NCBI GenBank assembly: GCA_038045385.1
Contig: JBBSYE010000007.1
Location: forward strand, 44,761-108,760
DNA: 64,000 nt
Source of the DNA: Nanobdellota archaeon
Lineage (GTDB): Archaea > Nanobdellota > Nanobdellia > Pacearchaeales > GW2011-AR1
Direction of reading: 5' to 3'
In this document: one piece after another, positions 9,867-35,292 of the stretch
Layout of the letters: each line of letters begins with the position of its first letter
How positions within the stretch are numbered: position 1 is the first letter of the stretch
Program-made: the position numbers and the translations under genes
The notes under the pieces: model-generated
Database searches by the model: none
What the model was told of the DNA's origin: nothing
Seen by the model: the letters and a program-made list of their open reading frames with translations, nothing else

Positions 9867-10115
9867 TTATCTTCTAATTATTTTACCGACAGCATCAGGC
9901 GCCTTTTCAGGCTGGTGCCTTTCATCAGCAAGAGCAACCAAATCAACAACGCCCTCTTCCAAAAGCTCCCCTAATGGACGCTCACCGATAGGGTCTCTAC
10001 CTGCATATATTGATTCAGGAACAACATAATTTCCACTTTCTGCATCATAAGCCAAATTAGAAAAATGTAAAGGATGCCTTGGATCTCCGTGATTATTACC
10101 TCTTGGCATATCCAA
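9867..10115 (-). CDS. Hypothetical protein
   Basis: 82-aa ORF with TTTAAATA upstream. Confidence 0.5.
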   Translation of the reverse strand: MDMPRGNNHGDPRHPLHFSNLAYDAESGNYVVPESIYAGRDPIGERPLGELLEEGVVDLVALADERHQPEKAPDAVGKIIRR

Positions 10116-10190
10116 TATAAGAAAACACCCTATTTAAATCTTAATAAAACAAGTAAAAAGGTTTAAAAATAACTATTTTAGAGTAATTAC

Positions 10191-11102
10191 ATGATAGAAT
10201 CTGTTGATGATGACGAAAAACCCCTCAAGTTAGAGCAACGCGTCCGTCAATTAGATAATGCAAAAAGACCGGCAAAACATATAGCAAGAGAACTATCTGA
10301 ATTATTAGGTGCAAGTAGAAAAACAATTGAGACATATATCGGTGCAAAAAGAAAGGGGTTTAAATCTTTAACAGAAGAAAGAAAAAAAATAGCAAAAGAT
10401 AAAGGATTTTCTTCCTACAATGCAAGAACACTAAAATTGAGTGGATTTACATCTTATATGGAACTCCAAGAATATCAAGCAAAAAAAGCAGGATGGTCTT
10501 CTATTAATGATTATAGACTTTGGTTAGCGACAAATAGAAGAAGTATCGTCAGAGAAGGAATTACATTAGAAAAACAAGCAATCTTCGAGGAATCGCTAGA
10601 ATATTTACCAGAAAATCCAAATATAATTGCAGAATATCCAGAAAATTTAGAATTTGAGAATGAAGAAGTATTAAAAAAAGCAATGCAAAAATTATCAGAA
10701 AGAGAACTTATCATTTTAAATGAAGTTTCAAATCAAAGAACATATAAACAAATAGGCATAAAAATTGGAATAACTAGTGGAAGAGTTGAGCAAATATATA
10801 ACGAATCAATGGAAAAAATATGGTCTAATCTAAGACCAGGCATCCCGTATAAAAAAGAAAGAAGACAAGAGAAAATTGAAGATGGTGAACTTTTATTTGC
10901 ACATCTTATGTTAAAATCTCTACCAAGACCTGAAGGAAGGAAGAAAAGACCAAGAGAAGCATTAAATGAATTAAAAAGGACATATGAAGAAGCATGGGGA
11001 AGAGAAGCGCCAAGATGGATAACTCAAGTAGATAAAATAAAAATGTATCAAAAAAGAATAAAATCAATTCGTGAACGCGTATTTTCTCGTGAAGCTGAAT
11101 AA
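10191..11102 (+). CDS. Protein with sigma-70 region 4 HTH and N-terminal GF(S/T)S repeats
   Basis: AMQKLSERELIIL...RTYKQIGIKIGITSGRVEQIYNESMEKI matches the region 4.1/4.2 consensus. Confidence 0.75.
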   Translation: MIESVDDDEKPLKLEQRVRQLDNAKRPAKHIARELSELLGASRKTIETYIGAKRKGFKSLTEERKKIAKDKGFSSYNARTLKLSGFTSYMELQEYQAKKAGWSSINDYRLWLATNRRSIVREGITLEKQAIFEESLEYLPENPNIIAEYPENLEFENEEVLKKAMQKLSERELIILNEVSNQRTYKQIGIKIGITSGRVEQIYNESMEKIWSNLRPGIPYKKERRQEKIEDGELLFAHLMLKSLPRPEGRKKRPREALNELKRTYEEAWGREAPRWITQVDKIKMYQKRIKSIRERVFSREAE

Positions 11103-11147: not shown

Positions 11148-12230
11148 TTATCTGAATACCTCGATGCCTAAATCAGACATCTCGGAACGCGCTCCAGGAG
11201 CAGGCTCGCGGTCCTTTCCAAGAACGTAAGGAGATTTAACGCCAGTCATTATTGTAATAACTCGCACTTTTCCTCCGAAATCCTTGTTAATTCTCGCACC
11301 CATGATAACCTGCGCATCTGGACTTAAGTTTTCAGTAACCAACTGGCCAACGCCAGAGAATTCATCAAGCTTAAAATCAGGACCGCAAGTAATATGGATT
11401 AAAGCACCAGTCGCACCACGATAATCAACATCCAACAAAGGGTGAGTCAATGCCTGCCTTACGGCTTCGTCAACTCTCATTGATGTATCAGACTCTCCTA
11501 CTCCAATAACTGCTACGTGACCGCCTTTCATAACTGCTGAAACGTCCGCATAGTCTAAGTTAATCAATGAAGGCAAGGTAATTGTTTCCACAATTCCTTT
11601 TATCATTGTACTGACCAGCTCGTTCGCAACTGCGAAAGCCTGTTCCATAGGCAAATTACCAGCAATATCTACAAGTCTGTTATTATCAATAACGATTGCT
11701 GTGTCAACAACCTCACGAAGTTCCTGCAAACCAAATTCTGCCTTGTCTAATCTCGCTCTCTCACATTCAAAGGGCATAGTGACTACCGCAATAACGACAG
11801 CACCGCTCTCTTTAGCAAGTTGCGCAATGACAGGAGCACTTCCAGTTCCAGTTCCTCCACCCATACCAGCAAGAATGAAGACCATATCGGCATTACCGAC
11901 AGCTTTCTTCAAATCAGATATCGCCTCTTTTGCAGCCTCTCTACCCTTTGAAGGTAAACCGCCACATCCAAGACCTCTCGTCAATTCCTTACCAATAAGA
12001 AGCTTCTCATCAGCCTTAGTGATACTAAGGTGTAAAGCATCAGTGTTAACGCCATAAATTGTAGCGCCACTGATTCCTTTATTGAAAAGCCAGGTTATCG
12101 TGTTACATCCTGCACCTCCAGCACCAACTACTTTGATATTCGCCTTTCCAGCACGAAGTTCGTCGAAGTTAATACTATAAGCACTCGCATTCTGTATCGC
12201 CTCTTTTGCAAAATCTAAAACCATTTTCAT
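11148..12230 (-). CDS. ftsZ: Cell division protein FtsZ
   Basis: VGAGGAGCN, GMGGGTGTG tubulin signature, INLDYADV; GGAGG RBS upstream. Confidence 0.97.
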   Translation of the reverse strand: MKMVLDFAKEAIQNASAYSINFDELRAGKANIKVVGAGGAGCNTITWLFNKGISGATIYGVNTDALHLSITKADEKLLIGKELTRGLGCGGLPSKGREAAKEAISDLKKAVGNADMVFILAGMGGGTGTGSAPVIAQLAKESGAVVIAVVTMPFECERARLDKAEFGLQELREVVDTAIVIDNNRLVDIAGNLPMEQAFAVANELVSTMIKGIVETITLPSLINLDYADVSAVMKGGHVAVIGVGESDTSMRVDEAVRQALTHPLLDVDYRGATGALIHITCGPDFKLDEFSGVGQLVTENLSPDAQVIMGARINKDFGGKVRVITIMTGVKSPYVLGKDREPAPGARSEMSDLGIEVFR

Positions 12231-12370
12231 AACCTCCTTTCAATCTTTATCATTCCCGCTAACAATCCAAGTTTAAATATTTGATTGTTCCACACAACAA
12301 AGATAGTCAGAATAATCTCTCTCTAGCAAACCTTCATCGCCCTTATATAATGACTCACTTAACTAAAAAA

Positions 12371-13003
12371 ATGGATCAAAATAACTATAATTTTGTAACA
12401 TTTGAACAAGCAATTCAAGACTATTTAGCCGGAAATGAAAAAGCAATAGAACCAATATCAAAATTATGTGAAATTTATTCAAAAAGAATAGCAAGTAGAT
12501 ATGGAAAAGTGTGTTTTGAAGACGTTGCTCAAGAGAGCCTATTAAAGATACATAAAAACGCACATACCTACGACCAAAATCAACCAGCAAAACCTTGGAT
12601 AATTTCAATAGTACGAAATACTCATTTTGATATGGTAAAAAAAGATGAGCGAGACAAAAGACGCAGAATTTCTGCATTAAAAAGAATGGATACAAGCAGA
12701 AGATTTCAAGGAGATAGCAAAGATACCCTTGAGGATATCACAAACAGAGAAGAGTTTATTGAAGAATTAGCAGATAGAGAATATAATCAAGAAGAAATTG
12801 CAAAAATAACACGCATTCTTGAAACTATGAACAATCCCGCTTCAAAGACTTTCAAAGACCATCATTATAACGGCCTATCTTACGAGGAAATAGCAAGAAG
12901 AGAAAATATACCTTTAGGCACAGTAAAAAGCAGAATAAATTTCACAAAAAAGAGAATAATTAAAATTGATACTGAAAATTTAAAAAATAAAAAACAATTT
13001 TAA
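12371..13003 (+). CDS. ECF-type sigma-70 family protein (regions 2 and 4)
   Basis: FEDVAQESLLKIHKNAHTYDQNQPAKPWIISIVRNTHFDMVKK; GLSYEEIARRENIPLGTVKSRIN; TTATATAA at 12343-12350. Confidence 0.88.
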   Translation: MDQNNYNFVTFEQAIQDYLAGNEKAIEPISKLCEIYSKRIASRYGKVCFEDVAQESLLKIHKNAHTYDQNQPAKPWIISIVRNTHFDMVKKDERDKRRRISALKRMDTSRRFQGDSKDTLEDITNREEFIEELADREYNQEEIAKITRILETMNNPASKTFKDHHYNGLSYEEIARRENIPLGTVKSRINFTKKRIIKIDTENLKNKKQF

Positions 13004-13054
13004 TATATCAATAATGTGAAATTAAACTTATATACCGATAAATCAACTACTAAT

Positions 13055-13714
13055 ATGCTCGATAATCATGCACTGCATGGAGATTCTGCTACATTAGATG
13101 AAGGCTTAAAGGCTGGAGATTTGTATAGGGAAGCAATATATAACCATATTGATGGGGATGTTAGGGCTATGGAAATAATCTCCGACTTCTGCATGAAAAA
13201 AGCAAAAATGATAGTTAAAAATTATAGCAATATTGATTATCAGGACATTGCCCAAGAAGCATTATTGCAAGTGTATAAATCGTTACGTAGTTATGATGCA
13301 AGAAAATCCGCAGGCCATGTCTGGCTTGGACAAATTGTTACAAACAAATACCGAGATGCCTTAAGAAGAGATAAAGTTAGACCTAAAATTTCTTTAGATG
13401 CTAAACTTCGCAGTAGAACAAATGAAAAAACGGAAATGTCGCAAATGGACTCATTATTTTCTGACGAAATTGAAGGATTAGACAAATTAATGGAAACTGA
13501 AGAAATAGAAGGAGTAGAAGAAAAAATAAACGCTGAAATAGAAGAAGAAAAACCAATAAACAGAATAGCTAGAATGAAGCTCTTTCATGGGACAAAATAT
13601 GAAGACATTTCAAGGTCTCTAAAAATTCCAGTAGGAACTATAAAAAGCACATTACATCGCAAAATGAAAAAAATAAAGAAACTATTTCCAAGCGAACGTC
13701 TTTGCCATCAATAA
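13055..13714 (+). CDS. ECF-type sigma-70 family protein (regions 2 and 4)
   Basis: YQDIAQEALLQVYKSLRSYD..HVWLGQIVTNKYRDALRR; GTKYEDISRSLKIPVGTIKSTLHR; TTATATA at 13028-13034. Confidence 0.88.
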   Translation: MLDNHALHGDSATLDEGLKAGDLYREAIYNHIDGDVRAMEIISDFCMKKAKMIVKNYSNIDYQDIAQEALLQVYKSLRSYDARKSAGHVWLGQIVTNKYRDALRRDKVRPKISLDAKLRSRTNEKTEMSQMDSLFSDEIEGLDKLMETEEIEGVEEKINAEIEEEKPINRIARMKLFHGTKYEDISRSLKIPVGTIKSTLHRKMKKIKKLFPSERLCHQ

Positions 13715-35177: not shown

Positions 35178-35292
35178 TGGCCCTACGAGGAATCGAACCT
35201 CGCTCACCCGGTCCCTTCAGTCTTTCTTTCCAATTTCTTTCCCAAAGAAAGCCTTCCGAAGCCGAGTATTCTATCCGATAAACTATAGGGCC
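35178..35292 (-). tRNA. tRNA-Arg(TCG) with 43-nt canonical intron (35213-35255)
   Basis: Acceptor GGCCCTA/TAGGGCC-A, anticodon stem CTCGG/CCGGG around CT-TCG-G, BHB helix CTTC/GAAG, T arm GGTTCGATTCC. Confidence 0.95.

Follow-up and report, generated by a model that had tools for sequence, protein, structure and literature searches.

A window of 64,000 nucleotides from contig JBBSYE010000007.1 of a Nanobdellota archaeon was analysed around a forward-strand gene encoding a protein of 303 amino acids (aa), hereafter the 303-aa protein. A first-pass annotation had described it as a shuffled architecture, in which a sigma-70 region 4 lacking region 2 is fused to a segment resembling a helix-turn-helix (HTH) and to four GFxS repeats, and had proposed that it serves a new regulator or acts as a sigma/anti-sigma mimic. 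The architecture was confirmed and the mimic found no support; a new regulator is the best-supported function, as judged from architecture only. The features of the gene are as follows (pLDDT, predicted local distance difference test).

10191..11102, + strand: coding sequence of the HTH / GFxS-repeat / sigma-region-4 protein, 303 aa, supported by the full-length relative P0002, 53 further relatives and a paralogue
10162-10169, + strand: TATA-box-like TTTAAAAA, 29 nt 5′ of the ATG
10218..10358, + strand: N-terminal three-helix HTH-like domain, residues ~10-56, net charge +8
10344..10526, + strand: four GFxS repeats, residues 52-112 (units start at 52, 68, 81 and 97), net charge +8
10572..10646, + strand: acidic, poorly ordered linker, residues 128-152, net charge -5, motif Q..FE..IE..P, pLDDT 54-79
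10638..10841, + strand: sigma-70 region 4 (4.1 and 4.2), residues 150-217, from Pfam, hhalign and structure superposition
10872..11090, + strand: conserved C-terminal helical domain, residues ~228-300, net charge +9, pLDDT 90-95

Relatives and sigma-70 region 4

Single-sequence searches for relatives came up empty. A word-index protein search returned the query only, and a search of 60 relatives' genomes gave no match at E<=1e-3; profiles were therefore needed. An exhaustive search of representative proteins returned 55 at E<=1e-3 (6 of them at <=1e-10 and 2 at <=1e-30), query included, and it is these 55 that are counted below. The closest relative, P0002, is also 303 aa long (37% identity, E 3e-39) and shows the same 16/13/16 repeat spacing. 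A paralogue in the same genome (282 aa, 32% identical, BLASTP E 8e-17) carries the repeats, the same C-terminal domain and a stronger region 4.

Region 4 is real and of the non-ECF (ECF, extracytoplasmic function), group 1/3 type, as the first-pass annotation had read it in likening the segment to RpoD/FliA. Pfam Sigma70_r4 (PF04545) matched residues 164-210 at E 1.2e-5 and 25.2 bits, above its cut-off of 24.1, whereas the ECF-type Sigma70_r4_2 (PF08281) reached 15.9 bits against a cut-off of 25.7; a neighbouring ECF-like sigma gene scores 35 bits with that model. The first-pass annotation had allowed that the segment might score better as a generic LuxR/GerE HTH. GerE (PF00196) gave 15.6 bits against a cut-off of 23.5, reached its cut-off in none of the 55 proteins (best 23.4 bits), and was outscored by Sigma70_r4 in the 303-aa protein and in every relative scanned. 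Sigma70_r4 was above cut-off in 34/55, with 40.8 bits for the paralogue. NCBIfam sigma models fell short: the sigma-70 superfamily model (TIGR02937) scored 29.8 bits against a cut-off of 42.9, and the NCBIfam RpoH, SigB/F/G and FliA models scored 14-28 bits against cut-offs of 133-457, with the C-terminal part alone aligned.

Profile and structure comparisons agree with this assignment. In hhalign, a profile of 31 family sequences (A2) was matched to the FliA-type sigma profile A4 over 65 columns, which is region 4 exactly (98.6% probability, E 1.4e-15). A second family alignment, A1, matched FliA (2e-13), SigF, WhiG and many SigA/RpoD chains among PDB sequences. The fold is shared with these sigma factors, and homology is detectable over both 4.1 and 4.2. 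In the AlphaFold model of the 303-aa protein (pLDDT 87.5), region 4 superposes on WhiG (7lq4_A) with Z 10.5 and a root mean square deviation (rmsd) of 1.3 Å over 68 residues at 28% identity, and on Taq SigA region 4 (1ku3) with TM 0.83 and rmsd 1.3 Å at 31% identity. LuxR-type chains matched the model more weakly, at Z 6-8, from residue 163-167 onward and without the 4.1 helix.

In the region 4 alignment, the sequence of the shorter family members is TLEEIGKE.GVTRERVRQIEKKALRKL with an L.DLY tail behind it, nearly identical to the primary sigma of P0057 and P0059; the VTRERVRQIE.KAL.KL helix of primary sigma and the tail that follows it are kept by family members. The copy of the 4.2 stretch in the 303-aa protein has diverged to TYKQIGIKIGITSGRVEQIYNESMEKI, and its recognition helix reads ITSGRVEQI where that of primary sigma reads VTRERVRQI. 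Three of the five residues that we take to be the sigma-A contacts to the -35 element are altered. Because the helix is changed at these positions, the DNA target of the 303-aa protein is probably not a TTGACA-like site.

Absence of the other sigma regions

As the first-pass annotation had noted, no region 2 could be found. Pfam Sigma70_r2 and Sigma70_r3 gave no hit in the 303-aa protein at E<=1, and a genome-wide scan with PF04542 at E<=10 matched three other genes, among them neither this gene nor its paralogue. Region 2 likewise gave no hit in any of 14 relatives scanned, P0004 included. When the family was aligned by hhalign to the FliA-type sigma profile, region 4 alone aligned. The N-terminal profile matched the sigma profile with 0.7% probability (E 0.087), its best local match being the region 3.1 HTH. 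Only with HMMER does the alignment to FliA run on upstream, through the linker and into the last repeat (E 2e-13, profile positions 72-191). Derivation of the repeats from sigma region 3 was considered and is unsupported, given that the whole-family hhalign alignment ends at region 4 and the N-terminal match stands at 0.7%. BLASTP of the 303-aa protein against the two neighbouring ECF-like sigma genes gave E 1.3 and 28, that is, no similarity.

The N-terminal domain, GFxS repeats and C-terminal domain

The HTH-like N-terminal segment proposed in the first-pass annotation is predicted as three helices (14-21, 28-39 and 43-54), each with pLDDT above 95. In a fold search residues 5-60 matched assorted HTH domains at Z 4.2-5.4, and the N-terminal profile matched a designed HTH-like repeat (8vd6) weakly, in five stretches of 9-13 bits of which none is significant alone. 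Support for the HTH label from sequence and fold is thus weak and generic.

The four repeats AKRKGFKS, AKDKGFSS, LKLSGFTS and AKKAGWSS are present as first described, with Gly at 56, 72, 85 and 101 and a spacing of 16/13/16 residues. Among 100,000 shuffled versions of the protein, none reached at least four G[FWY].S matches (mean 0.07). Repeat helices are predicted at 60-70, 76-84, 89-99 and 105-135, again with pLDDT above 95, so that each unit is a helix followed by a G-F-x-S turn; residues 1-135 modelled alone gave a pLDDT of 81. From 131 units at exact 16-residue spacing the consensus is A-K-K-K-G-F-x-S-x-x-E-Y-x-E-H-L. In this consensus Gly, Phe, Ser and Glu appear to cap helices: the Gly would terminate one helix and Ser-x-x-Glu cap the next. 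On that reading of helix ends and caps, the conserved residues would be structural and the Lys/Arg run exposed. Pfam holds no model for the GFxS repeat and none of its models matched it in the 303-aa protein. Residues 10-135 gave no usable feature hit in the ESM Atlas (TM <=0.39), and repeat-rich relatives gave only summed sub-threshold hits to CheR_N positions 30-51, with no stretch passing alone.

The C-terminal domain is marked by the motif EDGELL..H.. ... YK.RL..I...YF (alignments A1 and A6). No Pfam, PDB or sigma-profile match was found for it and hence no known family; its profile matched designed coiled coils only among PDB chains. A second sigma-4-like HTH was considered for this domain and found no support (BLASTP to the 4.2 helix of a neighbouring sigma gene, E 1.3; hhalign 0.1%). 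The whole protein is strongly basic, with an isoelectric point (pI) of 9.6. Prediction of a homodimer (two copies, alignment A2) scored 0.00 against a mark of 0.42, a score that speaks neither for dimerisation nor against it.

Exchange of modules within the family

The first-pass annotation had allowed that the repeats might not be conserved in homologues. The repeats proved to be conserved: the 8-residue motif occurs in 51/55 proteins, in at least two copies in 46/55, with a range of 1 to 11 and a dominant spacing of 16 residues. What follows the repeats differs between members. An HTH of the XRE type (HTH_3, HTH_26 or HTH_31) was found in 11/55, and at L018 an N-terminus of the type seen in the 303-aa protein is joined to an XRE end. 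A subfamily of ten (alignment A1) has the C-terminal domain of the 303-aa protein, with EDGELL..H and a YK.RL...YF tail. One of the 34 Sigma70_r4-positive proteins, P0054, is an outlier: it bears region 2, lacks the repeats and is a plain sigma.

A single member (1/55), P0025, is 354 aa long and combines the HTH and eight perfect 16-residue repeats with a TFB/TFIIB core (PF00382, 45.7 bits). A public source names it TFIIB. Judged from its sequence, it appears to lack the N-terminal zinc ribbon, an absence that would parallel the sigma architecture without region 2. The C-terminal end of P0014 is an HNH nuclease (PHROG endonuclease VII, E 3.7e-9), and on contig C8 of genome G429 there are adjacent paralogous HTH-repeat-HNH genes, L038:1462-2565 with 11 motifs and L044:1459-2310 with 5. 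Thus a chassis of HTH plus repeats is recombined with differing nucleic-acid-directed ends. Since the same chassis is fused to HNH nucleases, and a nuclease needs a DNA-targeting part, the chassis itself would target DNA.

A variant of the repeat was seen at L024:1679-2269 (genome G170, contig C11), where a 33-residue super-repeat, partly N-masked, alternates a Q/R-V-N-P-E-T-G insert with the 16-residue unit. There are seven profile matches in G170.

Distribution and gene neighbourhoods of relatives

Profile A2 matched 56/151 genomes of the order at E<=1e-5, most of them through region 4 alone. The match covered both the N-terminal module and region 4 in 5/151 (G000, G167, G115, G067 and G139), in G126 the match runs from profile position 69, and 8 further genomes of the order matched in the N-terminal/repeat module alone. 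The N-terminal profile, A3, matched 8/401 genomes sampled across the phylum, all of one class.

Two of the loci, in G167 and G115, have a common gene context. Another common context, of housekeeping synteny, is seen at L032 and L033, where the gene downstream appears to be replication-factor-C-like from its printed N-termini. Adjacency to sigma genes was not seen at the other loci inspected (the paralogue, L011, L013 and L031-L033). A viral contig scan with the single query P0041 gave one locus, matched in the XRE part only, which is no evidence of absence from viruses. PADLOC gave no hit for the 303-aa protein, the paralogue or P0014.

Host and genomic setting

The window belongs to a DPANN-type archaeon. 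Among its genes are those for TBP, TFE-alpha, aIF2-beta, deoxyhypusine synthase and GatD/GatE, for an ATP-dependent DNA ligase and for a recombinase of the RadA/Rad51 family (Pfam Rad51). With 8 contigs, the assembly totals 0.78 Mb and is 89% complete. The sequencing runs that contain DNA of this genome are groundwater metagenomes, and no RNA run is listed among them. Relatives of the 303-aa protein at three loci found with profile A1 lie in metagenome-assembled genomes (MAGs) titled Nanoarchaeota, Woesearchaeota and Parvarchaeum. The DPANN setting assumed in the first-pass annotation is consistent with these archaeal genes, with a genome of 0.78 Mb and with the titles of the MAGs.

The first-pass annotation had recorded TTTAAAAA at 10162-10169, and the position of this TATA-box-like element proved to be typical of the window. 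Upstream of non-nested open reading frames (ORFs) of at least 100 aa, TTTAWA starting at -29 to -26 was found in 20/74 cases, which makes this the modal TATA position. Because TTTAWA piles up there, TTTAAAAA is taken as a normally placed archaeal TATA box; upstream of the paralogue TTTAAA lies likewise at -29. From the distance between TATA box and ATG, the mRNA is predicted to be probably leaderless. The G+C content of the gene (0.27-0.34) is slightly below the window mean of 0.353; its base composition is therefore native and gives no sign of recent import.

On the other side of the promoter lies a divergent ORF, which shares the intergenic region with the gene.

9867-10109, - strand: divergent ORF of 80 codons, counted from the ATG at 10109, with a raised G+C content of 0.41

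No match to it was found in Pfam, PADLOC or PDB. A palindromic TTTAAA (10133-10138) stands 29 nt ahead of its ATG, and by this spacing the ORF looks to be a genuine leaderless gene. The two TATA boxes are joined by an inverted repeat, TTTAAATCTT / AAGGTTTAAA (10133-10142 / 10158-10167).

The neighbours of the gene in the window are MnmA, FtsZ and the two ECF-like sigma genes.

11148-12230, - strand: FtsZ (TIGR00065, 378.7 bits)
12281-13003 and 13016-13714, + strand: tandem pair of ECF-like sigma genes, each with region 2 and region 4

FtsZ, on the opposite strand, separates the gene from the sigma pair, and the gene is therefore outside any operon with them. The tandem genes score 59.5 and 54.1 bits with TIGR02937, above the 42.9 cut-off, and a third gene bearing region 2 is found on contig C2 (G000:C2:9717-9920), giving three sigma genes with regions 2 and 4 in the genome, two of them inside the window. 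These three are the DPANN sigma genes known from Castelle et al. 2021.

Several further observations were made in the window. The first ECF-like gene has its called TTG start only 12 nt past a TTTAAA (12269-12281), not ~29 nt, and from this spacing its true start may be further downstream. FtsZ has a G+C content of 0.43-0.45, clearly above its surroundings, and a GGAGG Shine-Dalgarno-like sequence before its ATG, in contrast to the leaderless pattern of most window genes. Two further features were recorded.

35178-35292, - strand: 115-nt tRNA (Rfam, 45.4 bits), missed by ARAGORN and probably an intron-containing archaeal tRNA
2391-2711, - strand: 107-aa ORF matching the phosphotransferase system (PTS) protein HPr (PF00381, 34.7 bits), unexpected in so small a genome

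Interpretation and alternatives

We consider the 303-aa protein to be probably a multi-module DNA-binding transcription regulator and not a sigma factor, a function that we infer from its architecture. This reading follows from the presence of region 4 but not region 2 in a host with TBP and TFE, and from the combination of that region 4 with a second HTH, basic repeats, an acidic linker and a basic C-terminal domain. Across the family the HTH-plus-repeat module adjoins a nucleic-acid-directed module, whether region 4, an XRE HTH, a TFB core or an HNH nuclease. In the mechanism that we propose, both HTHs, the N-terminal one and that of region 4, would touch DNA, and the GFxS array would either use its Lys/Arg-rich helix ends to follow the DNA backbone or space the two reading heads. 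Binding would regulate transcription, most simply through occupancy of promoter DNA and without recruitment of polymerase in the manner of sigma, because region 2 is lacking and the polymerase in the cell is archaeal.

Several points weigh against this reading. Region 4 of the 303-aa protein is barely above the Pfam cut-off, and its closest relative, P0002, gives no Pfam hit at E<=0.01; on account of both, the branch that holds these two proteins may be losing or changing the function of region 4. The conserved residues of the repeats look structural and hence say nothing directly on DNA contact. The repeat array found no structural match, the best hits being generic HTH or long-helix folds (Z 5.6; Foldseek E >=0.75), and this null result of the fold search is no proof of a new fold. 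The array may serve instead as a scaffold for protein-protein contacts or simply as a spacer. Moreover, the family is rare and patchy (8/401 genomes, and 1-2 members in each of ten clusters looked up).

One alternative, which we hold to be unlikely and which corresponds to the mimic of the first-pass annotation, is that the protein is a promoter-element decoy or anti-initiation factor, in which a headless sigma region 4 or TFB core occupies promoters or binds the ECF-like sigmas. Family members do keep the promoter-reading part with the polymerase-engaging part gone, both in the region 4 proteins that lack regions 2 and 3 and in P0025, where TFIIB repeats stand behind the HTH and repeats. The two ECF-like sigma genes are only 1.2 kb away, and anti-sigma factors were not found in DPANN according to the relevant passages of Castelle et al. 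2021 (PMC8204110). Yet that proximity to sigma genes is not repeated at the paralogue or at the other loci inspected, the neighbouring sigma genes do not resemble the protein in sequence, and the TFB core occurs in a single relative. Equally improbable to us is a general DNA-organising or mobile-element-derived DNA-binding protein, its module drawn from HNH homing-type nucleases and its role non-specific, nucleoid-related or in element maintenance rather than in the control of particular genes. The HNH-fused forms and their tandem copies in one genome speak for it, as do the patchy distribution with singleton clusters, the strongly basic pI and the variable number of repeats. Against these stand the viral contig scan, in which one relative matched in its XRE part only, PHROG hits of sigma type only for the protein and the lack of PADLOC hits, the native base composition, the housekeeping synteny common to two relatives, and the retention of two HTH modules of sequence-specific type.

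Less probable than either of these, and highly improbable to us, is a functional sigma factor of strongly derived form, or one half of a split sigma, still able to engage polymerase. The 4.1 and 4.2 fold is intact, the HMMER alignment to FliA reaches past region 4 into the last repeat and linker, and P0004 is publicly named 'RNA polymerase sigma factor (sigma-70 family)'. Regions 2 and 3 are nevertheless missing by Pfam, hhalign and the genome-wide scan, the profile-profile alignment ends at region 4, and the transcription genes of the window are archaeal. The name of P0004 looks automatic, presumably given on region 4 alone, and it overstates the case because such members have no region 2, and the 14 relatives scanned gave no hit to it.

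Comparison with known systems

The regulator favoured here differs from group 1/3 sigma factors in lacking regions 1.2, 2 and 3, in its archaeal host and in its diverged recognition helix, and it adds the N-terminal HTH, the repeats and the C-terminal domain. Among archaeal proteins, Tfx of methanogens is a regulator with a sigma-4-like HTH, and the chain 8hno_A, an 'archaeal transcription factor', superposes on the model with Z 9.2 and rmsd 0.7 Å over 50 residues. Like these and the LuxR/GerE regulators, the 303-aa protein probably uses its HTH as a plain DNA-binding domain. In contrast to LuxR/GerE regulators, it has the 4.1 helix, a repeat array and a second HTH, and no receiver or ligand domain. 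Modular DNA-binding repeat arrays are known from the NUMOD modules of homing endonucleases and from TALE repeats. By analogy, the GFxS array resembles these in that short tandem units, variable in number, are attached to nucleases or HTH domains. Neither in sequence nor in fold was a similarity to them found, and the GFxS unit differs in being 16 residues and one helix long, with a putative contact to DNA.

Sigma-70 genes have been described in DPANN, mostly in Woesearchaeota (fam00359), and the relevant passages of that study report no anti-sigma factors and leave the mechanism open (Castelle et al. 2021, PMC8204110). The likeness lies in bacterial-type sigma sequence within Woesearchaeota-like archaea. 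Those genes have region 2 and an ECF-type region 4, whereas the 303-aa protein has a non-ECF region 4 only and shows no pairwise similarity to them. In literature searches on archaeal and DPANN sigma factors none of the titles or abstracts retrieved concerned the GFxS repeat or this architecture, although the supplement of PMC8204110 might list relatives. Thus the repeat and the architecture appear to be undescribed, while sigma genes in DPANN were already known.

A bolder reading, which we regard as doubtful, is that the GFxS unit is a new modular DNA-tracking repeat, and that its chassis carries promoter-reading heads drawn from basal initiation factors of bacteria (sigma region 4) and of archaea (TFB core), without the polymerase-engaging parts, making headless promoter competitors. 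If this were true, archaeal promoters would be controlled by occupancy, and the number of repeats would set the reach between two DNA sites.

Castelle et al. 2021 (PMC8204110) leave open the role of bacterial sigma-like genes in DPANN archaea, whose polymerase is archaeal and in which no anti-sigma factors are known. One clear fate of such genes is seen in the 303-aa protein, where a primary-like region 4 now probably serves as the DNA-binding head of an archaeal protein of new architecture. Its 16-residue repeat, apparently undescribed, is exchanged between proteins that end in a sigma region 4, an XRE HTH, a TFB core or an HNH nuclease.

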